Shown: piece after piece, positions 3,738 to 63,297 of the stretch
How positions within the stretch are numbered: the stretch's first letter is position 1
Layout of the letters: the number at the start of each line of letters is the position of its first letter
From: Candidatus Pacearchaeota archaeon
Lineage (GTDB): Archaea; Nanobdellota; Nanobdellia; Pacearchaeales; GW2011-AR1
Assembly: GCA_018304105.1 (NCBI GenBank)
Contig: JAGVWX010000019.1
Location: forward strand, 65,411-129,410
Length of the DNA: 64,000 nucleotides
Direction: 5' to 3'
Made by a program: the position numbers and the translations under genes
Notes under the pieces: model-generated
What the model saw: the letters and a program-made list of their open reading frames with translations, nothing else
The model's database searches: none
Told to the model about the DNA's origin: nothing

Positions 3738-4075
3738 TTATTCTATTGCTGAAAGAGTTTCCTTAAGGTTTCCATCTTCGTAGGCTTTTAGGATTCTCCT
3801 CGCAGATTCTGGAACATCTGAGCCACCGAAAGAGAAGTAATCGTCATGCCTTGGGGCGCCATTGCTGTTGACACATAAAAACCGGTGGTCGCGCTCACAA
3901 CCATGGAGATATAAATGGGGAACTTAGACAGTTGCTCTTTGAACTCTTTTTAATCCATCGAAATAAGGTATTTGCGCATAATATCTTGAAGAATTGTTTG
4001 TCGGGAGTCGTCTTTTACCTTTTTGCTCTTTAATAGTTAAGGAGCGATCAGGGACCTCCGTGAGGTTTATACATT
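3738..4075 (-). pseudogene. Gene remnant without start codon and with an in-frame TAA (3924-3926)
   Basis: Minus frame reads ...RYYAQIPYFDGLKRVQRATV*VPHLYLHGCERDHRFLCVNSNGAPRHDDYFSFGGSDVPESARRILKAYEDGNLKETLSAIE*; no ATG/GTG/TTG start found. Confidence 0.3.
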
Positions 4076-4081
4076 GCCAAA

Positions 4082-4558
4082 CTAGGCGTTTTCGGCAAAT
4101 TGGATAAATCTTTCTGCTGTCCTGATGCCTAATTTGACGTCTTCTTTAGTTATTCTCTTCCATTCATAAAAATCGTACTGACCGAGTTCTTTTAGTTGAA
4201 ATGTTAAATCGAAACCGAAGTCTGAAAGCCTCTTATGAATTTTTACTAATTTTTTGTAAAACTCTCCGCTTATTAGTTTATGGTGTTTTAAGGCAATTAA
4301 AAGGCAAGGATGATTTTTACAGAAAAAGCCTTTATTTTTTAGTAGTAAATAATTTCCTGCGTGAAATATTGAATAATCTGCTTTGATAATCGCCCAATCC
4401 CGACCATTGTTTTCAAATTCTTTCTTTGCTATCCTCAAGTCGTTTTTCGCTTTTCCCAGATGTTTGTTCGCATGTTTTCTTATGTCCTCAATAAATTTAT
4501 GTTTTCTTTCACAGTCTTCATACAATTCTTTTATTTTCTTCTTATTTGAGAGCTTCAT
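4082..4558 (-). CDS. HEPN-domain protein
   Basis: 158 aa helical; ATGA start/stop overlap with pgk (4555-4558), so co-transcribed. Confidence 0.5.
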   Translation of the reverse strand: MKLSNKKKIKELYEDCERKHKFIEDIRKHANKHLGKAKNDLRIAKKEFENNGRDWAIIKADYSIFHAGNYLLLKNKGFFCKNHPCLLIALKHHKLISGEFYKKLVKIHKRLSDFGFDLTFQLKELGQYDFYEWKRITKEDVKLGIRTAERFIQFAENA

Positions 4559-5679
4559 CTTCTCAGAACTTCCAAGCCGGGAAGCTTTTTGCCTGCAACA
4601 TACTCATCTAATGCTCCTCCTGAAAGCGAGATATAACCGAAACGCTTTTTGTTGATTTTTAGTTTTGCTATTGCTGCGGTTGTGTGACCACCGCCGACGA
4701 CGGAGAACGCTTTGCTTGATGCGATTGCTTTGAGGATTGCTTTTGTGCCTTCTTGAAATTGTCTTTCTTCACAGTAACCAGCGACACCTTTCATGAAGAT
4801 TGAACTGGCCTGCTTGATTTTTTTAACGTAAAACTTTTGTGTTTCTGGACCAATGTCAAATATTTCGTATTTGCTTGGAAACTCATTTAAAGAAAGGTCT
4901 TTTCGCTTGCCTTTAACTTTTACAGCAAAGTCTAATGGAGTTTGAATGCCTTTAACTAGGGGTTTTAGAATTGGTACGAACTCTGCTATTTCTTTTTTAA
5001 GGAATTTGTTTTGAGCTCCGAAGTTGTAGCCTTTTGCGATTGTGCATACTTGCCCGAAGATTCCACAAGTTAGGACGTTCTTGCTATTCTTTAGGACGTC
5101 AATGTTCTCTTTTGGCTTTGCTCCTCCTAAGATGAAGAGAGTATCTTTTAGATTAATCTTCTCGAGGCTTTTGATTTCGGATTCCATGACTCTGCCCATT
5201 CCATGAGGAAGGACTTTTGGGAAGCCAGTTACGGAAGTTTGTGCTCTATGGCTGACTGAGAACGCATCGTTTATGTAAATGTCGAATAACGGAGCTAGGG
5301 TTTTTACCAAAGCATTGTTTTCTGTTCCATCGAACTCTTCTTTTAGATTTCTTACGTTGTCAAGCAAGAGGACTTCTCCGGGTTTGAGAGATTTGATTGC
5401 ATTTAACGCAGGTTCTCCGACGATGTCTGGAACGAATTTTGCTTTGATTAATTTAGCATGCTGTTCTAATGATGTAAAATCTTTGTTGCCTGGGCGGCCT
5501 TGATGCGCGAGGATTACAGTTATTGCTTTTTTCTTTTTTAGTTCATCCAAGGTAATTTGGTGAGCTTTCATTCTTTCAGAAAGCTGTGCTTTTCCATCGA
5601 TAATTTCTGTGTTAATGTCTAATCTGAGAAGGACGCGTTTGTTCTTTAGGTTGAAGGATGATAGTGTGGGGATTTTCAT
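4555..5679 (-). CDS. pgk: Phosphoglycerate kinase
   Basis: RLDINT...AHQGRPG...GGGHT..A motifs; 374 aa. Confidence 0.9.
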   Translation of the reverse strand: MKIPTLSSFNLKNKRVLLRLDINTEIIDGKAQLSERMKAHQITLDELKKKKAITVILAHQGRPGNKDFTSLEQHAKLIKAKFVPDIVGEPALNAIKSLKPGEVLLLDNVRNLKEEFDGTENNALVKTLAPLFDIYINDAFSVSHRAQTSVTGFPKVLPHGMGRVMESEIKSLEKINLKDTLFILGGAKPKENIDVLKNSKNVLTCGIFGQVCTIAKGYNFGAQNKFLKKEIAEFVPILKPLVKGIQTPLDFAVKVKGKRKDLSLNEFPSKYEIFDIGPETQKFYVKKIKQASSIFMKGVAGYCEERQFQEGTKAILKAIASSKAFSVVGGGHTTAAIAKLKINKKRFGYISLSGGALDEYVAGKKLPGLEVLRR

Positions 5680-6301: not shown

Positions 6302-6388
6302 TTGCTTGTAATTTCTAGAACGAAAAATAATAGCTTAAATTGGTAGGGCTCGTTTAAACTTGGTCAACTCCTTTCAGTCGTTGAGGCA

Positions 6389-6423
6389 CTGACGAAGTCA
6401 TTCGCTACGCTCATGAGGCAGCC
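6389..6423 (+). repeat. Hairpin module ctgacgaagtcattcgctacgctcatgaggcagcc
   Basis: Same module type as 40087-40120 and 40121-40155 (GACGARGTCA-hairpin-TGAGGCAGC) with compensatory stem changes. Confidence 0.6.
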
Positions 6424-6521
6424 AGCTCGCAAATTATTGCACGGTCCATTATGCTCATTGGGTTTCTGAGTTATGCAAAGATAATAGCAAAATTGTAGCG
6501 GAGTAGATAATTAGAATGTTA

Positions 6522-7524: not shown

Positions 7525-7960
7525 ATTTTTGAAAACTGTTTGCTACTCGCAGCCACGCTCGTGATTTGTCTGCCGGTTTACTCTCGCGTAACTGCTCGCC
7601 CACCCCCCACCCAGGTAGTCTTGATTTGCTGCTGCAAATTAAGTTAGTAATCGCAAACAATTTTATTTGTACATGTTTATATTCCAGAGAAGATTTAAAG
7701 GTTGCGGTTGTTACGATTTTATTGAAAATATTTTTTGGCAGGTTTAGGATTCCCACAAGGATTTCACTTTCAGTGAAAAACCCTACTCCGCAGCCACGCA
7801 TCTTAATAGTTTAATTACTGGTGATACGTAACTGCTCGCTCGCAGCCACGCTCGTAATTATTGACAAATTACTCTCGCGTAACACGCTCGCCCTTGCCAC
7901 CACTCCTACTTTCCCCCAAATCAAAATAGTAAACCTGCAATTAGACTTTTTCAACAAAAC
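7525..7960 (+). repeat. Expanded GC-core intergenic element with internal duplication
   Basis: ctcgcagccacgctcgt at 7546 and 7839; ttactctcgcgtaac..ctcgccc at 7578 and 7869; cccaccccccaccc core; ends ttagactttttcaacaaaa (7941-7958). Confidence 0.65.
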
Positions 7961-11141: not shown

Positions 11142-11447
11142 ATGGGTAACAATGGAAATGCTTTGCGACGTCTCGTGCTTTCGCGTGAGCAAAAGGATGT
11201 TTTGCGTAGAGTCGCTGTTGAAAAGTTTGGTACAAGGGAAAATTTTGCTCAAGCCTTAGAATCTGCTGCGGGTAGGAGGAGATATGGCAACTTATATTTA
11301 TTCTCAGTTAATTATGAACGTCATTTGCAAGGTCAACCTGTAACAAAAAGATTTGCCCAGATTTATCTTGATGCTCTTGGAGATGATTCGCGACTGGAAT
11401 TTTTGAGGCCAGTGGTTGGTAATGGGGTGAATGGGCTTTCTAATTAA
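11142..11447 (+). CDS. Hypothetical protein (orphan, R/G-rich)
   Basis: 101 aa ORF, composition unlike neighbouring K/I/N-rich genes. Confidence 0.4.
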   Translation: MGNNGNALRRLVLSREQKDVLRRVAVEKFGTRENFAQALESAAGRRRYGNLYLFSVNYERHLQGQPVTKRFAQIYLDALGDDSRLEFLRPVVGNGVNGLSN

Positions 11448-11465
11448 AAAATAGTTTCAATAATT

Positions 11466-11535
11466 TAGAGCGCCGAAGGCGCAATGCCTCGTTCGCCATT
11501 GGCAAACGAAGGCCCGACGCGCTCGGCATCTTTAG
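11466..11535. other. GC-rich nested hairpin
   Basis: gagcgc...gcgctc outer stem enclosing gcctcgttcgcca-tt-ggcaaacgaaggc (about 11 bp with one bulge). Confidence 0.5.
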
Positions 11536-11950: not shown

Positions 11951-12106
11951 AAAGATTTTGCTTATGAGAAATATTTTGGGCCGGAGATTGTGCCTTGAAC
12001 GACGAAAAAATAGCTTAAGTTTTCTGGATTAATTATTATGACGGATTATGTGTGGTTGGATATTTGATATAGCCGAGCGAAGCGAGGCTGATGAGTGATT
12101 TACAAG

Positions 12107-14378: not shown

Positions 14379-14518
14379 TTCTACTTAGTCACCTAGTGAC
14401 TTTGTGTATATAAATTTTTGGGATTTATAATTTTGTCGGGAATTTTGCAGTTTTTAATAATTTCAAAATAGCAAACTAATAATTAGATTTTTTCAACAGA
14501 GCTCAGTTTTTGATGTTT

Positions 14519-15145
14519 TTATTTATAGTACTGAGGATTTGATTCTCTATCTGCTCTGCCAGAATAAAGACTTTCTCTTCTACCTGTGATTGATGGTTGT
14601 AGAAGACCATACACGTCGTAAGGGTTACTAATATCCTTTAGAATGTCATACATTGTTCTTGTATTTATATTTTGATATTTCATTCCTCCAGCGCTGCCTC
14701 CTCCACCCGAATATGTTTGGGTTTTTCCGGTATCTATTTTTAAGTTTCCTGTTCCAAATATCTTTCCGATTAGTCCAACATCAACAACAATTCCATTCAT
14801 TTGTTCAAAATAAATCGATTTATAATCTGTTCCTATTAAACCAGATTTTATTATAACCCTTTTATTTGTTATAGCATATTCTACAACAAAATTAGAAAAA
14901 AAGTTCCAGAGCAAAAAGAATAAACCAATAGTTAGAATTCCCAAACCAATTAAGAATCCGTTAATTTGTTTTGGTTGCCCATTGGAAGTGTAATTTATAT
15001 TATTCTTAGAAAATAAAAAAGCAGAAGCACCAATAACAATTATTAAACCGATAATTAAACCAGTTATCATTACTTTTCTATTTATCTTGCCTTCCCACTT
15101 CTTTTGTTCGCTTGTTTCTAAAATGTTGTCTATGTGGTGGCTCAT
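14519..15145 (-). CDS. Membrane protein with bacterial PH (bPH_2/DUF304-like) domain
   Basis: Two TM helices then EYAITNKRVIIKSGLIGTDYKSIYFEQMNGIVVD. Confidence 0.6.
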   Translation of the reverse strand: MSHHIDNILETSEQKKWEGKINRKVMITGLIIGLIIVIGASAFLFSKNNINYTSNGQPKQINGFLIGLGILTIGLFFLLWNFFSNFVVEYAITNKRVIIKSGLIGTDYKSIYFEQMNGIVVDVGLIGKIFGTGNLKIDTGKTQTYSGGGGSAGGMKYQNINTRTMYDILKDISNPYDVYGLLQPSITGRRESLYSGRADRESNPQYYK

Positions 15146-15148
15146 TTT

Positions 15149-15745
15149 TTAAAGTTCAGATTCAAAATATCTCCCACTACAATCTACGCCTTCAAGGTCT
15201 TCTGTTGAAAAGTCTCCTTGCTGCCAACCCGTAAGCAAAGTTACGAGTCTTTGCGTTTCAATATTACAAGTTCCGTCTCTTCCTTTTAATTGATTTGCTA
15301 AGTTTTGAGACTCTTGTAATTGTTGGTTAATCTCTGTCTGCGAGGCTCCGCTAGTTTGCATTTGTTGAATTAACTCTTCACTAAACTGCAACTCGACATC
15401 CTCTGTTCTAATGTAAAACAAGCATTTGTCCGATTGGATACCCTTAAGTTCGTAATAGGAAGAAGTGGTTTGTTCAATGCCAAACAAATTTACAGTTCCA
15501 GTAAAAAGAGCCTTTGATTTTTGACAACTTTTTGCTGCGTCTATAAAACAAGCCATGTCTGTTTCGCAATCTTTTATTGTAGAACTTTGTGTTGTTCCTT
15601 GAGTACTTTTGGGATTTGTATTAGTTGAAATTGTTTTCTCCTCGGGTTTCTGAGAATTGTAAAAAACAAAGACCGATAATACAACCAAAATTACCAATAA
15701 CAAGGGCAATATAATCCATAAAAGGCTAAATCCTCGCTTGTTCAT
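15149..15745 (-). CDS. Secreted/anchored hypothetical protein
   Basis: N-terminal KRGFSLLWIILPLLLV hydrophobic segment, Cys-containing soluble domain. Confidence 0.5.
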   Translation of the reverse strand: MNKRGFSLLWIILPLLLVILVVLSVFVFYNSQKPEEKTISTNTNPKSTQGTTQSSTIKDCETDMACFIDAAKSCQKSKALFTGTVNLFGIEQTTSSYYELKGIQSDKCLFYIRTEDVELQFSEELIQQMQTSGASQTEINQQLQESQNLANQLKGRDGTCNIETQRLVTLLTGWQQGDFSTEDLEGVDCSGRYFESEL

Positions 15746-15873
15746 GTTTATATTGATGAAAGAGAGCTTAAAAATGTTTTGTCTAGGCTGATTGGTTATT
15801 AACCATTTTTAGATTTCTAATTTTTTAACGCTGAATTCGCAAGGCTTAAAACAGGCGTTATATTTTATTGAAA

Positions 15874-16677
15874 ATGGGTGAGAAAAATATTGTTGAAGTT
15901 AAGAACTTGGTCAGGAAGTTTAAGGCGTTAGTTGCGGTTGATAACGTTTCGTTTAGTGTCAAAGAGGGCGAGATGTTTGCGTTTCTTGGGCCGAATGGGG
16001 CGGGAAAGACGACGACAATCAGAATGCTGACGACTTTATTGAGCCCTACTTCGGGGAAGATTAGAGTGAATGGTTTTGATCCAACTAAAGATCAGCACGA
16101 TGTAAGGAAATCGTTTGGAATTGTTTTTCAGGACACGAGTCTGGATAATGAGCTCACCGCTTTTGAGAATTTAGATTTTCACGGGAACCTTTACGGAGTC
16201 GAGAAGAATCTTAGGAAGGAAAGAATTGATTATCTGCTGAAGTTTGTCGGGCTTTGGGAAAGGAAAGGCGATTATGTGAAGAATTTTTCAGGGGGAATGA
16301 AGAGAAGGCTTGAAATCGCGCGAGGCTTGATTCATCATCCGAAGCTTTTGTTTCTCGATGAGCCGACTCTTGGGTTGGACCCGCAGACGAGGAATCATAT
16401 GTGGGAATATGTAAAGAAGCTGAATAAGGATGAAAAGATGACTGTGTTTTTCACGACGCATTACATGCAGGAAGCAGAGCAGTACGCGGACAGAATTGCG
16501 ATTATTGACAACGGGAAAATCGTGGAGCAGGGAACTTTGAAAGAGCTGAAAGCAGCAACGAAGACTAAGAATTTGGAGGCGGCGTTTTTGAAAGTCACAG
16601 GAACGACGATAAGAGAAGAGCGCGGAGGCGCTAAGGATAGAATAAGGCTCGCGAGGCGGGCGTGGGGGGACAGATAA
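15874..16677 (+). CDS. ABC transporter ATP-binding protein (ABC-2/DrrA-like)
   Basis: Walker A GPNGAGKTT, signature FSGGMKRRL, Walker B LLFLDEPT. Confidence 0.9.
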   Translation: MGEKNIVEVKNLVRKFKALVAVDNVSFSVKEGEMFAFLGPNGAGKTTTIRMLTTLLSPTSGKIRVNGFDPTKDQHDVRKSFGIVFQDTSLDNELTAFENLDFHGNLYGVEKNLRKERIDYLLKFVGLWERKGDYVKNFSGGMKRRLEIARGLIHHPKLLFLDEPTLGLDPQTRNHMWEYVKKLNKDEKMTVFFTTHYMQEAEQYADRIAIIDNGKIVEQGTLKELKAATKTKNLEAAFLKVTGTTIREERGGAKDRIRLARRAWGDR

Positions 16678-16846
16678 TGGGAAAGGAAAATAAAAATTCG
16701 GAAAAAATAGCTGCAATAATAATCTTTTCAAATTATCATAATGGCTTTCTTGAGCCGAACTGTTATTATTGTGCTGGGTGGGGTGGGGTGAAAATGTTTT
16801 GGAATTTAACCGAAGGTAATTTACAAACTAAGGGGGCGAGTATCTA

Positions 16847-17590
16847 ATGGGTGCGGTTTATGTAATGTGGCTGAGACAGATTAAGAGATACTGGAGGTCG
16901 AGGGGAAGAATGATTGGAATGTTAGGGCAGCCGATTTTGTTTTTGTTTGCTTTGGGTTTTGGACTTGGGCCGATTTTTCAGAAAGCGGGACAAGGCGATT
17001 TTATTGCTTTCTTGTCTCCAGGAATTGTTGCGATGACAGTTTTGTTTGCGGCGATGTTTTCCGGAATTGAAGTAATATGGGACAAGCAGTTTGGGTTTTT
17101 GAAGGAGACGCTCGTTGCTCCGGTTTCAAGGGGAAAGATTATGCTTGGAAGAACTCTCGGGGGCGCGACAGTCGCAATGGCGCAGGGAATAATTGTCTTT
17201 CTGATTACTTTGATAGCAGGGTTTAGGCCTTCTTTGAGTTTGCTTGCGCTGGCATTCTTCTTTACGTTTACAATTGCGTTTTTGTTTACTTCAATAGGAA
17301 TTGCAATTGCTTCGAAACTTGAAGACATGCAGGCATTTCCCATAATTATGAACTTTTTGATTATGCCAATTTTCTTTTTGTCTGGTGCATTGTTTCCGCT
17401 AAATGATGCTCCGAGAGTTTTGGAAATAATCACGAGGTTTAATCCATTGACTTACGGAGTTGATGGGCTAAGGGGCGCTTTGACAGGATTTTCGCAATTA
17501 GGATTTGCGATAGACGGAGGAGTCATGGTTTTTCTAAGCGTTGTTGTTTTTATAATTGGAAGTTATTTGTTTTCTAAGATTGAGATTTGA
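16847..17590 (+). CDS. ABC-2 type transporter permease
   Basis: 247 aa, 6 TM, follows the ATPase gene. Confidence 0.8.
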   Translation: MGAVYVMWLRQIKRYWRSRGRMIGMLGQPILFLFALGFGLGPIFQKAGQGDFIAFLSPGIVAMTVLFAAMFSGIEVIWDKQFGFLKETLVAPVSRGKIMLGRTLGGATVAMAQGIIVFLITLIAGFRPSLSLLALAFFFTFTIAFLFTSIGIAIASKLEDMQAFPIIMNFLIMPIFFLSGALFPLNDAPRVLEIITRFNPLTYGVDGLRGALTGFSQLGFAIDGGVMVFLSVVVFIIGSYLFSKIEI

Positions 17591-17761
17591 TTTTGAAGAA
17601 ATTAGATAGCTTAAATTATTTGGCTCGCTTAATTATCTTACCCCCTAAGGCTTTTTGATGTTGGGAAGAAGGGTTTATGAATGGCCTTTGAAATAATATT
17701 TTAATTTGTTAATTGACAGTAATTTTAGTTCAGATAATTATTTAAACCTGGTAAGATTGAA

Positions 17762-18667: not shown

Positions 18668-19423
18668 TTAGTTCCAGATAATCTTTTTGAGTTTTTTTGT
18701 GAGTTCTAATGGACGATTGCTTTGCCAGATGTTTCTTCCGATGGCAAGACCTGTGCAGCCAGATTTCATTGCTTGTTTTGCTTCGGTAAGAAGAACGGAT
18801 TCTTTTGTTTTTGAGCCGCCGGCGATTACGACTTTTGCTTTGCCTGCTGCTTTGACTGCCCATGCGAGGTCTCTTTGGTCTTTGCCGTTCCAGTGAACCT
18901 TTACCATGTCTGCGCCTATTTCAAGACCAACGCGGCAGGAGTAAGCGAGGAGCTCTTTGTCTGATTTTCCTTTTGTGCCTTTGCCTCTCGGATAAATCCA
19001 GGCAATTACAGGAATGTTTTTTGCATGAGCTTCTCTTTCGATGTTTTCAAACTCTTTCAGCATTTTAGCTTCGTATTCAGAACCAATATAAACAGTGTAG
19101 CCAACTGCTGCTGCTTTCAACTTGAGAGCTTCTTTGACAGAACAAAGCTGCGTGGAAAACGGCTCGCCGTTTCTTAAACTTGTCTTGCCGTTTAACTTAA
19201 CGATTAATGGGATTTTTGATTTTCTTATTTCCTTACGATATTTTTCTGCGATGCCTTTTTGAAATATTACCGCGTTAAATTTTCCTTTTTCTGCGATTTG
19301 AATTATATATTTAGGGTTTACGTTTTTGTCGTTGAAGTCGACTGGACCATGCTCCAATCCCTGGTCGTATGCTAAGTAGAATGCTTTGCCTTTTGTGAGA
19401 ATTTTATTTAAGTTTATTTTCAT
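18668..19423 (-). CDS. fba: Class I fructose-bisphosphate aldolase (DhnA/FbaB type)
   Basis: 251 aa TIM-barrel; VKLNGKTS (Schiff-base Lys region), DMVKVHWNG, LAIGRNIWQ. Confidence 0.75.
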   Translation of the reverse strand: MKINLNKILTKGKAFYLAYDQGLEHGPVDFNDKNVNPKYIIQIAEKGKFNAVIFQKGIAEKYRKEIRKSKIPLIVKLNGKTSLRNGEPFSTQLCSVKEALKLKAAAVGYTVYIGSEYEAKMLKEFENIEREAHAKNIPVIAWIYPRGKGTKGKSDKELLAYSCRVGLEIGADMVKVHWNGKDQRDLAWAVKAAGKAKVVIAGGSKTKESVLLTEAKQAMKSGCTGLAIGRNIWQSNRPLELTKKLKKIIWN

Positions 19424-19671
19424 TTTTTTAATTTGCCTTCTTTTAAGTCGTTAACGAGGTTGATAAAACTTTTTGTTAGGCTTTTGAGTTCTGTTCCGAT
19501 TTGAACCACTTTAACTGTGAGTGTGAAAAGCACAGTTAGGCCGAATACTAATATCGCCTGCTCAAATGTTGGCGAGTTTCCGAAGATATACCAAAAAGCG
19601 ATTATTAGTGATAAGACGAACAAAATCCAAATAATAATTATTTTCCAATCAGAGTTATTTTTGTTTACCAT
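19420..19671 (-). CDS. Small membrane protein
   Basis: 83 aa, 2 TM, 4-nt overlap with the aldolase gene. Confidence 0.45.
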   Translation of the reverse strand: MVNKNNSDWKIIIIWILFVLSLIIAFWYIFGNSPTFEQAILVFGLTVLFTLTVKVVQIGTELKSLTKSFINLVNDLKEGKLKK

Positions 19672-19798
19672 CTTTTATGAGAATAAGTTGGAGAATTATA
19701 TAAATTTGCGCTTTGGTCAATTCTAAAATAGCTTCAATTTTCAGAGATATTAATATCATAACGAATTGGATTTAATTTGAGATGGCCACAATAAGAAT

Positions 19799-20542
19799 TT
19801 AGCTTTTCTTCTTCAACAGAGCGGCGGCCTTTTTATCCAAAAGGATTGTTACGTCGTCGTGATTTTGGAGCGCGGAAGCTGGGCATTTTGTGCTTGCTGG
19901 AGATTCAAGCATTTCTTTTACTGCTTTGGCTTTGTGGTTTCCTGTTGCAATCAAGATAATTTTCTTTGATTCTAAGATTGTTCCGATTCCGATTGTTAAA
20001 GCTCTTTTTGGAGATTTGAATAACGAAAATATTTTTCCAAAGTTTGAAGCTTTTGTTTGGTATGTCAAGATTACTTCTCTTGTGCGGCTGTCGAATGGCG
20101 AGCCGGGCTCGTTGAATGCAATGTGGCCGTTTACGCCGATGCCAAGAAACATCAAATCAATGCCGCCGGCTTTTTTTATTTTCTCTTCGTACTCTTCGCA
20201 TTCTCTTGTAATGTTTATTGCAGAACCTTTGAGAAAGTGAAGGTTTTTTTCTGGAATTTTTCCTCTTTTGAAAAGATTTTTGTTCAGGAAATATTCAAAA
20301 CTGTCCTTTTGCTCGGGACTTAACCCAATGTATTCGTCCAGGTCGAAGATTTTTGTTTTTGAGAAGTTTAGTTTTTTATCTTTGTAAACTCTTACTAACT
20401 CGTTGTAAACAGGGATGACTGTTTTTCCTGTGGGCAGTCCAATAGCAAGATTCGGTTTTTTGTTCAGCTCAGATTCTATCTGTTCTACTGCATATTTGGA
20501 AATTTCAGAAGGGTCTTCGAAAATTATTATTTTCGGTTTCAT
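19799..20542 (-). CDS. nagB: Glucosamine-6-phosphate deaminase / 6-phosphogluconolactonase family
   Basis: GLPTGKT, FDLDEYIGL, LGIGVNGHIAFNEPGS motifs. Confidence 0.8.
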   Translation of the reverse strand: MKPKIIIFEDPSEISKYAVEQIESELNKKPNLAIGLPTGKTVIPVYNELVRVYKDKKLNFSKTKIFDLDEYIGLSPEQKDSFEYFLNKNLFKRGKIPEKNLHFLKGSAINITRECEEYEEKIKKAGGIDLMFLGIGVNGHIAFNEPGSPFDSRTREVILTYQTKASNFGKIFSLFKSPKRALTIGIGTILESKKIILIATGNHKAKAVKEMLESPASTKCPASALQNHDDVTILLDKKAAALLKKKS

Positions 20543-25539: not shown

Positions 25540-26040
25540 ATGGCTGAAAAAGATCAAATTTCGAAGGAGAAGCTGGAGCATACGGGGGTTTTTGACTTTA
25601 AGGCGATGTATTCTTATGCGCATTCGTGGTTTGCCGAGCAGGGATATGGCATAATAGAAGAAAGATATATCGAGAAAGCAAAAGGCGATTCCCGAGACAT
25701 TATGATAGAATGGAAAGCATCTAAGGACTTTTCAGATTATTTCAGGTTCGAATACAAAATCAAGTTTGAAATTGAAGGATTGACTGATGTGGAAGTTGAA
25801 ATTGAAGGGAAGAGAAGACAAATGAACAAGGGCAGAGTTGTAGTTGAAATTACGGCTATTCTTGTGACGGATAAGGACGGGAAGTGGGAAAGCTCGTCGT
25901 TCAGCCGGTTTATGAGAGACGTTTACAACAAGTACATTGTGCCGTCAAGAGTAGAAAGTATGAAGATACTGCTTCTTAGCAAATCTACTGGATTTAAAGA
26001 TGATTTAAAGACGTTTATGAATCTGACAGCGAGACGATGA
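25540..26040 (+). CDS. Hypothetical protein
   Basis: 166 aa soluble ORF, host-like composition. Confidence 0.5.
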   Translation: MAEKDQISKEKLEHTGVFDFKAMYSYAHSWFAEQGYGIIEERYIEKAKGDSRDIMIEWKASKDFSDYFRFEYKIKFEIEGLTDVEVEIEGKRRQMNKGRVVVEITAILVTDKDGKWESSSFSRFMRDVYNKYIVPSRVESMKILLLSKSTGFKDDLKTFMNLTARR

Positions 26041-26215
26041 TTTTTTACGATGCTGATTTAATTTGAAGAGCGTTAAAATAGCTTCAATTTTCAGAAGTAT
26101 TAATATTATAACGCATTAGGTTTAGCTTGAGGGATGAAAGCTGTGGGGCTGAGTTGTGTCTGGGGTATTTTTTGAATATGGAAATTGTTAAAAAGAGATT
26201 GAGATAAAAATTAAT

Positions 26216-26440
26216 ATGGCTTCAGATGTGGCTGCAGGGAGGACTGTGGAAGGAATTGTTGAAAGGGTCAGGTGGATATTTAGATATTTTTACGGTGATG
26301 GAAAAGAAGTAGACTTGGGACCGTATATGACATGGGGGACTGCGCGCGCCGCGAGGGATTATGTTGCAAATTCTGGAACGAGATGTTCTCCGCCAGTTAG
26401 GGTTTCGGAAAGTTATCAACTGAGAAGGGGCGAAGATTAG
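26216..26440 (+). CDS. Hypothetical small protein (orphan)
   Basis: 74 aa R/G/V-rich; lies between the ATAGCTTCAATT motif (26078) and the TTTCAACAAAG motif (26458). Confidence 0.35.
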   Translation: MASDVAAGRTVEGIVERVRWIFRYFYGDGKEVDLGPYMTWGTARAARDYVANSGTRCSPPVRVSESYQLRRGED

Positions 26441-26485
26441 TTGATGTTCTTTAATTTTTTCAACAAAGAAGACAGGATACAAATC

Positions 26486-26493
26486 TTTAAATA
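26486..26493 (+). promoter_or_regulatory. TATA box for 26515 gene
   Basis: tttaaata about 22 nt before the ATG; tttcaacaaag 17 nt further upstream. Confidence 0.5.
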
Positions 26494-26514: not shown

Positions 26515-27891
26515 ATGAAAATTTGGTGTTTACTGCTGTTGATAGGAATTTTTGCAGTTTTTGCATGTTCGACAGTTTTAGCAGAGACGGGACTGGAAGT
26601 TGAAGAAGTCAATAAGGAAAATGTTGTTGTTGCAGAAATTGGGAACTCTGCTTATTATGATTTAAAGATAAATAATCTGGATGGTGAAGACCAGTTCATG
26701 GTTTTTACTTTGGTTGGCGTGCAAATTGAGCCGAGAGACTATTTTAATTTGAGTTCTGGGAATACAACAGTGCCGATAAAAGCTACTATGAGCGAGAAAA
26801 TTCTCCGAGAAAGAAGGGATTTGCTTTTTTTCGAGTATCAAATAAAAGGAATGAACAGAGATATTTTCAAGAGCAAGCTGCTTGTTAATATTGTTTCGGT
26901 GAAAGATATTTTGGAAATTAATTATGGTTCTTTTCATCCAGACAATGATAAGATAGAAGTTTTTGTGAATAATAAGGAAGACGTTCGGCTTGAGAACCTG
27001 ACTTTGGTTCTTGAATCGGTTTTTTTCAGAGAGTCAACTCCTTTTAGTATTGGACCGCATGAAAACAAGACTTTTTTAATTTTGGTTAACAAGGAAGGGA
27101 CAGAAGACCTTGTTGCCGGGCCGTATATTTCGACGACGACTGTTGTGGTGAATGGGAAAGAAGTCAAACTTGAAGGAGTGGTTGATTTTCTTGAGAAAGA
27201 AGGAACTTCTGTTTCAGAGTCAACTGAAGGAATAATAATCAGGACGACTGTGATAAACAAAATAAATAAAGGCAACACTCCGGTTGCTGCAAGCGTGAGC
27301 ATGAAGAAAGACATTTTGTCGAGGCTGTTCACTAGTTTCACGCCAGAGCCGAGCCAGACGACCAGAGACGGTTTTTTTATTGAGTACACTTGGCAGAAAA
27401 ATTTGGCTCCGAGCGAGGAGTTGGCTGTTAAGGCAACCACAAACTATACAATTCCGTTTTTGATATTGGTTTTGATTGTTGCTGTCGGTGGTGTTGCGAG
27501 ATTTTATTATTTAAAGTCTGTTTCGATAAGCAAGAGAGTTTCTCTTGTCAGGACTAAGGGGGGGGAATTCGCGCTGAGAGTTGTATTGAGAGTGAGGGCG
27601 AGAAAGTCTGTGGAGAAACTTCAATTGACCGACTCTTTGCCCGGGATGACTAAGCTCTATGAAAATTTCGGAAAGCAGCCCGACATGATTGAGAAGGACA
27701 GCAGAAGATTGGCATGGAATGTCGGACATTTGGGAAGAGGAGAATCAAGAGTTTATTCTTATGTTATCTACTCAAAGCTGAATGTTGTCGGAAGATTTGA
27801 ACTGCCCCTGGCTCATGCACGATTTGAGAAAGACGGGAAAGTTGGAGAAGCGTATTCTAACAGAGCTTATCTGGCGATGGAGAAGAGCTAG
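26515..27891 (+). CDS. Secreted beta-sandwich-rich protein with a TM segment (DUF11/CARDB-like)
   Basis: Signal peptide, internal TM (IPFLILVLIVAVGGV), C-terminal LTDSLPG...VYSYVIYSK region. Confidence 0.5.
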   Translation: MKIWCLLLLIGIFAVFACSTVLAETGLEVEEVNKENVVVAEIGNSAYYDLKINNLDGEDQFMVFTLVGVQIEPRDYFNLSSGNTTVPIKATMSEKILRERRDLLFFEYQIKGMNRDIFKSKLLVNIVSVKDILEINYGSFHPDNDKIEVFVNNKEDVRLENLTLVLESVFFRESTPFSIGPHENKTFLILVNKEGTEDLVAGPYISTTTVVVNGKEVKLEGVVDFLEKEGTSVSESTEGIIIRTTVINKINKGNTPVAASVSMKKDILSRLFTSFTPEPSQTTRDGFFIEYTWQKNLAPSEELAVKATTNYTIPFLILVLIVAVGGVARFYYLKSVSISKRVSLVRTKGGEFALRVVLRVRARKSVEKLQLTDSLPGMTKLYENFGKQPDMIEKDSRRLAWNVGHLGRGESRVYSYVIYSKLNVVGRFELPLAHARFEKDGKVGEAYSNRAYLAMEKS

Positions 27892-40016: not shown

Positions 40017-40236
40017 TTTGTTGAAAATCTTTTCTGGCAGTTTGTTATTTGCCCGCCACCCCGCCAATAATTATCATACCACCACACTGACGAGGTCATT
40101 CACTTCGTTCATGAGGCAGCAAGAGACGAGGTCAATGCTTACGCATTGAGGCAGCCGACCGACTTGTGAACAGATTCTTTTTACAGATAAATATAATGTT
40201 TTGTTAAATCGTATTTATTTGACTTTTTCAACAGAG
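40017..40236 (+). repeat. GC-core modular intergenic element, copy b (with two inserted hairpin modules)
   Basis: tttgttgaaaa (40017) ... ccaccccgcc (40056) ... modules 40087-40120 and 40121-40155 ... ccgaccgacttgtgaa ... tttatttgactttttcaacagag (to 40236). Confidence 0.75.
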
Positions 40237-40774: not shown

Positions 40775-40898
40775 ACTTTTAGTTGCCTGTCGATGTTTTT
40801 TTCTGTTGTATTTTTAGCGTGTTAAAAATAGCTTAAATTTGCACGAATGCTAATTAATAACCGAAGGAACCCGAAGAGAGGACAGTATTTTGACTGGC

Positions 40899-41068
40899 CC
40901 ATAAGATTTAGAATGAATCATTATAGTCCATAGGAATCTGAATGAATCATTATAGTCCATAGGAATCTGAATGAATCATTATAGTCCATAGGAATCTGAA
41001 TGAATCATTTGAATGAATCATTATAGTCCATAGGAATCTGAATGAATCATCATAATCCATAAGATTCT
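40899..41068. repeat. Tandem array of 29-bp unit gaatgaatcattatagtccataggaatct
   Basis: Perfect units at 40911, 40940, 40969, 41011; 12-nt partial at 40998; degenerate units at 40899 and 41040-41068, the latter encoding the last codons and stop of the wHTH gene. Confidence 0.9.
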
Positions 41069-41319
41069 GAAAGAATTATAATCTTGTTGTATTCCTGGAG
41101 AAATTCTTCGCCTTTTTTTGTGATTATAAAATATTTTTTGCCGGCTTCCTCTTTTGATTCCATGAGTTTGTTGTTTATGAGTTCCTCTAGGTAAGGCTTG
41201 ATGCTGTTATTGGAAAGATTTGCTTTGTATATCAGATGAGTTATCTTCGCCTGCTTACCTTTCTTTAGAACTTCTAGGAGGTCTTTGATTACCTCTAACT
41301 TGGTTCTTTTCTTTGCCAT
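41050..41319 (-). CDS. Small winged-helix DNA-binding protein
   Basis: 89 aa; KITHLIYKANLSNNSIKPYLEELINNKLMES...KYFIITKKGEEFL. Confidence 0.6.
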   Translation of the reverse strand: MAKKRTKLEVIKDLLEVLKKGKQAKITHLIYKANLSNNSIKPYLEELINNKLMESKEEAGKKYFIITKKGEEFLQEYNKIIILSESYGL

Positions 41320-42267: not shown

Positions 42268-42723
42268 TTTTCTTTTTCTTTTTCGTTCTATTAAAATAGC
42301 CAGATAGTTAATGTGAATGTGGTCATATTAATGAGACCTTACGACATAAGATATCACCCAGCCCAATGCTAAGGGGTTGTGAACTTGCCTATTGCTTGTT
42401 TTAAGTGTGGGCTGCCTTCGGTTTTTCGGTTATTATTGTATGTTACAGACAGATAAAAAATTAGGTGATTAGGTATTTAACGGACCAATTTTAAACAATA
42501 TAATGACGATAAAATATCTGAAAATGTGTCTAGACAACAGAAATGCGAACATTAAAGTAATGAACCTTAAGATAGATATTAATTATCTAAGGTTTATCGA
42601 CGCTATTTGATAATTATTGAAATGAATCTAACAGTCATGTGGGCTTATTTGTATATTACTTAGTCCGTATTTGCACTAATCACCAAAAATTATTTTGGCT
42701 AGTTTGTGAATGGGATTTTTCTT

Positions 42724-44725: not shown

Positions 44726-44968
44726 TTACACTTGTATGTTCATGGTCGTTTTGGTTTTAAATTGACTCCAAATAGAAATTATAATTATTTGGGTATTGAT
44801 GCTATGCTTGGAGTTCGTATGATGGATAATATTGACCCGGCCAAAGATAGTCGCTCTAGTTCTAGATATGGTGCATTTGTAAGTGAGCTCAATGCTGCTT
44901 TGAGTTAGTTATTATCTAAAAGTAGTTACATTCGTAAGGTTTAAAAATAGCTTCTAGTTTTCTTTTCT

Positions 44969-45517
44969 ATGATAAATTGGCACGAAATAGACAGAGAATT
45001 AATTGGAAGGGGCGTTGATGTTAATCGTATTGCTGATGCTTTAGGAAAACCTCTTGAACCAAGAATCAAACCTCTTGTTATGGCTTTGAATTATCGAGGT
45101 TATCATACTTGCGGGTCGTGTGAAGGCCATACTCTTGCCGAAAAAGAAAAAAGAATGGCTGACAAGGTTGCTTCTGGCGAGGCAAAACTTGTTTTTAGAG
45201 CGCCACGCGGTTTAACATACGAAAGGAAAACGCAAGGCGGAATAGTTTATCATGATACTTTTCATGAAAGCCCCTGGGCAGATTTTGATGTAATTAGCGA
45301 ATCGCAAGTAAGAAGATTTACAAGAGCATTGAATATACATAATGAAATTGATGAAGTCCAATGGAGTCATCATTTGTATAATCGTGGTAAAGAAATAAGT
45401 GCGAATCTCGTTAGCCCTGGTGAAGTGGTTCGCATGGAAACAGTCCCGAGATATTCTTTGTCAGTTATGCAAGCAAGTATCCCCCGATTTGCTGAGAATG
45501 TGATTAGGTTTGGTTAG
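44969..45517 (+). CDS. Hypothetical protein (orphan)
   Basis: 182 aa; CGSCEGH motif; converges on and overlaps the GGDEF gene by 4 nt. Confidence 0.45.
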   Translation: MINWHEIDRELIGRGVDVNRIADALGKPLEPRIKPLVMALNYRGYHTCGSCEGHTLAEKEKRMADKVASGEAKLVFRAPRGLTYERKTQGGIVYHDTFHESPWADFDVISESQVRRFTRALNIHNEIDEVQWSHHLYNRGKEISANLVSPGEVVRMETVPRYSLSVMQASIPRFAENVIRFG

Positions 45518-63081: not shown

Positions 63082-63297
63082 ACTAGTGTGATTATACAAT
63101 AGTCACACCAAAAATAGCTAAATTAATTGTAATAACGACGACAAATAATAAATCTTTATTAGATTCTATTTGTAATCTGAATTACTGTTTACGAATATTC
63201 TAAAACTTATGCCCGTATAAATTCAAGATGTTAACTCAAAATTTAGCTAATTTCCAAGAGCCTCTTTGTGGCTGGGACGATATGCTCATACTTTTAA

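Follow-up and report, generated by a model that had tools for sequence, protein, structure and literature searches.

The window, a 64-kb stretch of DNA from a groundwater archaeon of the Pacearchaeota (DPANN) with a G+C content of about 39%, has an archaeal gene content (CDC48, topoisomerase I, RtcB, PGK, GAPDH, TIM and aIF among others) and many ORFans. Two of its genes, at 25540–26040 and 26515–27891, are separated by a spacer of 474 nt that carries a conserved promoter, ACAAATCTTTAAATAATTC, at its right end. Between the orthologues of these genes, the spacer measures 58–61 nt in the closest relatives, L085 and L087, and 135 nt in L001. A lineage-specific insertion of about 405 nt occupies positions 26041–26449 (+ strand) and comprises a so-called A1 element, 60 nt that terminate in T6 and an orphan ORF at 26216–26440. 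The A1 element, 58 nt in length (26074–26131, + strand), is the copy singled out by the first-pass annotation and includes, at 26078–26089, the short motif AAAATAGCTTMAATT, which we have termed the A-box (position-weight score, 26.9).

A short box recurs in the gene spacers on one strand

The A-box occurs in the window in six exact and five near copies. The exact core, ATAGCTTMAATT, starts at 1649, 6330, 17606, 19728, 26078 and 40828, always on the + strand, against 0.03 occurrences expected by chance, and six copies were not reached in any of 100 shuffles. The bare 12-mer with up to two mismatches was found 24 times where 26.5 occurrences were expected; because this is the chance level, membership was judged by the wider motif aAAAATAGCTTcAATTtTcag, the best definition of the box, in which the information spans positions −3 to +16. 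Near copies were called by a position-weight scan, which gave 11 copies on the + strand of the window, at 1649, 6330, 11451, 12010, 16707, 17606, 19728, 26078, 40828, 44947 and 63114; three of these (16707, 44947 and 63114) are good members, at 17–24 bits. No copy on the minus strand reached 16 bits, in agreement with the lack of reverse-complement copies originally noted, and the weak minus-strand matches at 2872 and 55348 both lie within genes and are at chance level. The first-pass annotation had listed 12 copies, 10 of which stand; the other two, at 42294 (AAAATAGCCAGAT) and 48839 (ATTAGCTTCGTT), score below 13 bits and were rejected. The copy at 11451 (AAAAATAGTTTCAATA) was absent from that list; it scored 18.2 before joining the training set and 22.3 afterwards.

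All A-box copies are intergenic, coding DNA having none, and the core is conserved far better amongst them than the flanks. The 8-mer AAAATAGC occurs on the + strand in nine spacers and on the minus strand in none; this 8-mer, the TATA box and TTTCAACA are the three that occur in the greatest number of intergenic regions of the window.

The region was extended with public contigs of the same population (148 kb and 188 kb), joined by exact-protein look-ups, to cover 149 kb, from −67.1 kb to +81.7 kb in window coordinates. Matches to a ThyX orthologue included none with the signature of this population. The extension added copies at −47591, 67697, 67760 and 71075, each of them on the + strand; a possible one-mismatch copy near −51.4 kb, also on the + strand, is doubtful. 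Over the 149 kb, the strand count is 15 on + and 0 on − (two-sided coin-flip P ~6e-5), by which the recurring co-oriented motif reported from the window proves to be real and the evidence for it stronger than before. The density is about one A-box per 9 kb and the spread is patchy: from −67 to +1.6 kb, there is only the copy at −47591 plus the doubtful one near −51.4 kb.

Orientation is independent of the neighbouring genes

The neighbours of the scattered copies include the genes for PGK, GAPDH, RtcB, CDC48 and S6e. Nine copies stand downstream of the stop of a + strand ORF, as had been observed, at a distance of 4–60 nt. The variant AAAAATAGTTTCAATA (11447–11466, + strand) is found 4 nt past the stop of ORF 11142–11447, the variant ATAGCTGCAATA (16703–16722, + strand; score, 23.2) lies between genes for an ABC ATPase and an ABC permease, and the weak variant AAAAATAGCTAAATTA (63110–63128, + strand; score, 16.9–17.0) is situated 33 nt past a 52-aa ORF called in L088. 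The copies at 1649 and 19728 do lie between minus-strand genes, as first described. Altogether, six copies at five loci (−47591, 1649, 19728, 67697/67760 and 71075) follow the start of a minus-strand gene, and at eight loci the A-box faces the 3′ end of one.

The first-pass annotation had allowed that the orientation might merely track the strand of the flanking genes. The finding survives this check, for the left neighbour is on the + strand at nine loci and on the minus strand at five, and the right neighbour on the + strand at six and on the minus strand at eight. With neighbours on mixed strands on either side, the A-box therefore does not track transcription. Its place within the spacer is more regular: at 13 of 14 loci, the A-box occupies the left edge (P ~0.001; mean relative position, 0.27), 3–63 nt from the left neighbour (147 nt at −47591) and with 71–427 nt of spacer to its right. 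The extra DNA of a spacer has the A-box at its left end.

The + strand is rich in G and T throughout, and all 15 copies are on this G/T-rich strand. GC skew is positive over all of the 149 kb reached, without reversal and whatever the orientation of the genes, which are nearly balanced by strand (64 on + and 58 on − in 110 kb). The skew falls to about zero in one place only, an island of low GC at about −67 to −59 kb that carries R-M and Fic genes.

Kinship of the copies

The first-pass annotation had described an element of about 55 nt shared by three copies. This element is 58 nt long in two of them, 19724–19781 (+ strand, between two minus-strand genes; A-box at 19728–19739) and 26074–26131, which are identical at 50 of 58 positions (86%; E 1e-14); the third is a partial, A1-type copy (1645–1705, + strand, likewise between two minus-strand genes; A-box with exact core at 1649–1660), with 86% identity to the copy at 19728 over 43 nt. 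The copy at 12010 (12006–12062, + strand; A-box at 12010–12021; score, 24.2) had been called a diverged relative, and rightly so: it has one mismatch in the box and an extended similarity to the copy at 26078 (71% identity over 68 nt, E 1e-5). Partial relatives of the 58-nt A1 unit are found at 1649, 12010, 67760 and 71075. The exact copy at 40828 (40820–40854, + strand; A-box at 40828–40839) shows 73–77% identity over 30–45 nt with those at 26078, 19728 and 12010. About 50 nt further on is a tandem array (40879–41082) with a period of 29 nt and some six to seven units, TGAATGAATCATTATAGTCCATAGGAATC.

Other copies are continued differently. At 6326–6436 (+ strand), the exact box (6330–6341) is followed by GGCTCGTTT, two hairpin modules (GTCA..TGAGGCA) and GCCAGCTCGCAAATTA. 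The copies at 6330 and −47591 both have, about 25 nt after the A-box, a hairpin module plus GCCAGYTCGCWAATTA, with 87% identity over 46 nt, and the downstream module of 6330 is also 87% identical to 40089–40123. At 17602–17630 (+ strand), the exact box (17606–17617) is followed by GGCTCGCTT and represents what we call subfamily B; GGCTCGYTT after the A-box is common to the copies at 6330, 17606 and 67697. As judged from sequence similarity, the A-box copies are related by descent and fall into subfamilies: A1, the 58-nt unit; A-H, a box with hairpin modules; and B, a box with GGCTCGYTT. The similarity amongst the copies is graded and modular, which argues for copying rather than convergence. 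Most of them have just the box of 16–20 nt in common. When the 58-nt unit was searched in three deep DNA runs, one further A1-like copy was found, on a 3.2-kb contig, from which it follows that the A1 subfamily is small.

Comparison with relatives and insertion status

The A-box was absent from every relative compared, all with 65–80% protein identity (0 copies in ~1.2 Mb); the comparison took in 80 RtcB-anchored loci and the closest relatives, L085 and L087, in which a neighbouring protein has 80% and 75% identity. A scan of JGI metagenome contigs for the bipartite pattern returned one locus of the same population and six chance matches. An origin from a virus or plasmid was considered and rejected, as an 18-mer scan of IMG/VR gave three chance matches alone, none of which extends.

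Synteny with L001, L085, L087 and others is good around 18.6–31 kb. Besides the 26041–26449 insertion, there is one of ~91 nt at 19712–19798, between the stop of gene 19799–20542 and the TATA box of the DeoC operon; the two overlap in L001. In contigs of closer relatives, the end of the gene upstream of the 474-nt spacer is joined directly to position 26450, which is suggestive, these being loose contig ends from low-depth runs. At both loci with a readable ancestral state, the A-box is, on this comparison, inside inserted DNA. Candidates for a target duplication, the 5-nt repeats TGATT and AATTT, were seen by eye and may be due to chance. Presence/absence polymorphism was not observed: four near-clonal deep runs are identical at all copies in 1–20 kb.

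Near the second insertion, an orphan ORF of 83 aa (19420–19671) is slotted between a conserved promoter/5′ end and the start of DeoC, which it overlaps by ATGA; in L001, the promoter directly precedes DeoC. Several differences between assemblies were seen elsewhere. Contigs from two low-depth runs agree with the window as far as 14466 and from 17585 onwards and carry different sequence past either breakpoint, the second of which is situated 21 nt before the A-box at 17606; this suggests that 14466–17585, with two minus-strand genes and an ABC transporter, is a variable island bounded by repeat boxes, the two junctions possibly being on separate contigs. At 2306 and at 2823/2824, the window lacks 9 nt (GGCGAGCTT) and 35 nt (TTTGCGAGCGGAGGC...), respectively, that are present in all public assemblies and in four deep runs, which changes a 140-aa gene to one of 124 aa; this reflects either variation between strains or else an assembly error in the source of the window. 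There are further differences at the strain level: one assembly is without the 828 nt at 3764–4591, which carry a HEPN gene. At 65.7 kb and 66.5 kb (L089 14351 and 15089), two other assemblies diverge fully, and the new sequence begins with CTCTAATAATAAT both times.

Folding, enzyme and promoter searches

Folding of 14 copies from −10 to +120 revealed no shared hairpin (z from −2.5 to +1.6 versus shuffled controls), nor did it reveal the subterminal imperfect hairpins that are a hallmark of IS200/IS605 or the palindromic stem-loop unit of REP/BIME elements. The sole palindrome is an AT-only 8-mer, TATTAATA. The 58-nt unit is not bounded by terminal inverted repeats, and the R″-L″/L′-R′ imperfect inverted repeat of an integron attC site, an array of such sites and an integrase were not found. 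At the gathering threshold, Rfam 15 returned three tRNAs only, and nothing near any copy at E ≤ 5. With Rfam negative and folds no better than shuffles, a structured RNA was rejected; amongst candidates suggested by eye, a C/D-box sRNA has the wrong box spacing, a K-turn and a hammerhead were not sustained, and a fragment of a tRNA D-arm fits the copy at 6330 alone, where ARAGORN found nothing. Pfam scans of the window and the precomputed Pfam lists of the flanking loci contained no transposase, integrase or HUH enzyme; a Y1/HUH transposase (TnpA) was not found within the 149 kb. No copy has the shape of a stem plus T-run terminator, and T-runs, where present, are upstream of the A-box.

In this region, 36 genes carry a TATA box at a distance of 26–36 nt upstream of the ATG; the distance peaks sharply at 29 nt (16 genes; for example, the TATA boxes at 26486, 44940 and 40254 of the window). 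Because the 29-nt spacing is so sharp, transcripts are mostly leaderless. The copy at 44947 belongs to such a canonical promoter, the only one to do so: at 44940–44968 (+ strand), the TATA box TTTAAAAA is fused to the A-box ATAGCTTCTAGT (in its wider form, ATAGCTTC), 29 nt before the ATG of the gene 44969–45517, and the promoter score is 13.3, compared to a median of 11.2 for canonical promoters. The 10th percentile of the 36 canonical promoters is 5.6, which 12 of the 15 copies do not reach, and the reverse strand scores similarly. The spacing in the A1 unit is promoter-like, with CTTCAATT at −26, TATTAATAT at −10 and, around +30, a YA. In seven copies, AGCTT is immediately preceded by (T/A)TTAAAA(A)T. 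Metatranscriptomes of the same studies contained no sequence of this organism.

Other modules of the gene spacers

A second modular element of the spacers consists of TTTGTTGAAAATCT, GTTTGCTACTCG, CCACCCCGCC, an AT box and zero to two hairpin units, followed by CCGACCGACTTGTGAA. Its long copies (777–901, 40017–40236 and 57940, as well as the equivalent positions 68394, −9101, −12825 and −26198) are on the + strand in seven of seven cases, and its short copies (7921–7956 and 14463–14498) are reversed. The hairpin units, of about 27–36 nt, read (CTGACGARG)TCA, a stem-loop and TGAGGCAGCC; all of them are on the + strand (6363–6436 and 40085–40155; equivalent positions 68463–68497 and −47563 to −47518). 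Their inner stems vary yet stay complementary (AAC/GTT, ATGC/GCAT), that is, by compensatory changes, and they have no match in Rfam. Strand bias is not confined to the A-box: it is shared by the units of GTCA, stem-loop and TGAGGCAG (TGAGGCA, 5:0 intergenic), the tail GACTTGTGAA (tail boxes of the GACTTGTGA type, 6:1) and the long form of the T-box (7:2).

In many genes, the 8-mer TTTCAACA starts 21–28 nt ahead of the start of the TATA box, the distance being 28 nt in three of six cases for + strand genes; it occurs at 26458, 39504, 40226, 42983, 44101 and 61903 on the + strand and at 780 on the minus strand; it is also found directly past stop codons, in the reverse sense. Since it occurs on either strand and in L085, it follows the gene and is separate from the A-box. 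As a candidate for the right end of A-box “slots”, it was rejected on the same grounds, being also present at the empty site.

Discussion

We consider it probable that the A-box is a dispersed insertion repeat with an orientation independent of genes. Amongst the readings offered by the first-pass annotation, one end of an oriented insertion is the best fit, given that the A-box is at the left edge in all but one of 14 loci and that both loci open to comparison proved to be insertions. That the motif is, more specifically, the conserved head module of a family of spacer insertions that are short, modular, non-coding and locked to one strand, the family being young and at the level of a species, has about an even chance of being right. 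Against this reading speak the lack of hairpins, terminal inverted repeats and a nearby transposase in the sequences covered, and the lack of polymorphism in a near-clonal population; that most copies have nothing but the box in common also fits site-by-site selection on a functional motif.

Selection on a motif could take several forms. One strand only, irrespective of genes, on the G/T-rich side of a region with unchanging GC skew, a core conserved far above its flanks and a density of about one per 9 kb would be expected of a polar cis-signal of the host, kept on one strand by selection and recognised in one direction by machinery for replication, repair or segregation; a polar signal related to replication or segregation was among the proposals of the first-pass annotation. 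Near-total strand skew along a replichore is indeed the property that KOPS, Chi and Ter motifs have in common with the A-box (for the latter, over the 149 kb reached). However, those motifs are short and are found in coding as well as non-coding DNA, and KOPS and Chi are common to related species, whereas the A-box is exclusively intergenic and confined to a species-level lineage; its absence from all relatives at 65–80% protein identity makes a host signal unlikely, and the homology beyond the core, the copies inside insertions and the patchy distribution add to this. We regard the polar signal as improbable: the strand pattern on which it was built stands, but the motif is lineage-specific, intergenic, descent-related and inserted. 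An operator of a lineage-specific DNA-binding regulator, or another selected double-strand binding site at many spacers, would agree with a linear, conserved motif of 16–20 nt without structure, placed beside promoters or terminators. Sites of a regulator follow the strand of the regulated gene, though, which A-boxes do not, and extended homology and insertion status indicate copying rather than convergence, so that, from the sequences at hand, an operator appears distinctly improbable.

A role in transcription can be envisaged at either end of the gene. The nine copies that stand 4–60 nt past the stop of a + strand ORF might be thought of as terminators or 3′-end processing elements of + strand genes, but at five loci, with six copies, it is the start of a minus-strand gene that lies before the box, minus-strand genes have no counterpart, and a stem-loop with a T-run is lacking, T-runs being upstream of the box; the terminator-like 3′ element put forward at first can be given hardly any credence. 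At the 5′ end, each A-box would be an active rightward archaeal promoter, a portable cassette made up of a BRE-like AAAATAG and a TATA-like CTTMAATT, or of TTAAAAAT just 5′ of the A-box, and would serve to transcribe small non-coding or antisense RNAs or the + strand gene that follows, co-orientation resulting from selection against head-on transcription. The copy at 44947 is integral to a leaderless promoter of the canonical type; when the TATA is taken to be at +4, the A1 unit shows both an AT-rich −10 region and, near +30, a YA; and (T/A)TTAAAA(A)T stands immediately before AGCTT in seven copies. A parallel exists in the class I repeats of the halovirus HF2, which are proven promoters of 58 bp, the length of A1, and are similar in being archaeal, 56–58 nt in size, clustered, co-oriented and intergenic, with a conserved 12-nt box that contains TATA (PMC8707807). 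The HF2 repeats, however, stand before viral genes of the same orientation and have been conserved among related viruses, whereas relatives lack the A-boxes, which face the 3′ end of opposing genes at eight loci and mostly have poor promoter scores (12 of 15 below the 10th percentile, the reverse strand scoring similarly). Furthermore, the downstream + strand genes own a canonical TATA at −29, the downstream T-run is inconsistent, and selection against head-on promoters is not evident because genes are almost evenly divided between the strands. On balance, the cassette as a general explanation seems rather unlikely; a promoter function of the module, which would be compatible with an insertion family since a mobile module can carry a promoter, we hold to be somewhat unlikely.

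Known families of mobile or repetitive DNA resemble the A-box family in part. IS200/IS605 elements and their non-autonomous derivatives (PATEs and MITEs) show a strict orientation bias that is independent of genes, as is that of the A-box over the 149 kb, and that in their case is tied to the replication strand; they lack terminal inverted repeats and an obvious target duplication, and they include small intergenic copies (PMC5027513, PMC3971601). The A-box family differs from them in lacking subterminal hairpins and a conserved target of 4–5 nt on the left flank; no TnpA or TnpB was found near A-boxes, and most copies share the 16–20 nt box only. MITEs of the DDE-transposase type have terminal inverted repeats, which the A-box unit has not, and a target-site duplication of fixed length, for which the sole candidates here are the 5-nt repeats mentioned above. 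REP/BIME elements with RAYT and Rickettsia palindromic elements are likewise short, dispersed, non-coding repeats in a compact genome and in one lineage, but they are palindromic hairpins, whereas the A-box is linear with no fold above shuffled controls, and its strict strand lock is not a hallmark of REP. The BOX elements of Streptococcus pneumoniae (boxA-boxB(n)-boxC) also combine a head box with variable modules in gene spacers, the counterpart here being the hairpin units (GTCA..TGAGGCAG) and the tail; they are of another sequence and from another domain of life, are not strand-locked and have complementary ends. Integron attC sites are co-oriented and bound inserted cassettes, and their orientation is tied to replication, one folded strand being the substrate (PMC5371416); the A-box has no imperfect inverted repeat, array or integrase, and is scattered among housekeeping genes.

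To return to the head module of an insertion family, new copies would arise by a copy-and-insert process that sees a single DNA strand, most likely the lagging-strand template exposed at the replication fork, as in single-strand transposition of the IS200/IS605 type. The lock on orientation would then follow the direction of replication, not of transcription. For IS608 and ISDra2, an orientation bias through single-strand transposition at the fork is established, and by analogy with IS608, the strand lock of the A-box may tentatively be attributed to replication-coupled single-strand insertion (PMC5027513, PMC3971601). The A-box could be kept as the recognition part for a putative mobilising enzyme and/or through its promoter-like layout: if the TATA-like CTTMAATT is placed at −26, the A1 unit has an A-rich BRE-like stretch, the AT-rich −10 (TATTAATAT) and a YA initiator, spaced as in an archaeal promoter. 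A bolder proposal, which we think quite unlikely, is that Pacearchaeota possess a replication-coupled single-strand insertion system without hairpin ends, in which the 16–20 nt box (AAAATAGCTTMAATT) is recognised on the lagging-strand template. Such a system would paste short modules, sometimes with orphan genes (as at 26041–26449), beside gene ends in one polarity. To our knowledge, strand-specific DNA insertion of this kind has not been described for these organisms.

In practice, the A-box can serve as a marker of recent insertions and as a check on contig orientation and assembly in this population. DPANN genomes are tiny, yet in this one, spacers made up of lineage-specific modules take about 23% of the DNA. 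Provided that the modules enter in one polarity only, they record the direction of replication in organisms that cannot be cultured, and one-polarity entry, if true, points to a strand-specific insertion without the usual hairpin or inverted-repeat ends. It could explain orphan genes and new promoter-like sequences slotted beside housekeeping genes; should a single-strand insertion system exist, gene spacers and their orphan genes would be a by-product of replication-linked DNA insertion.
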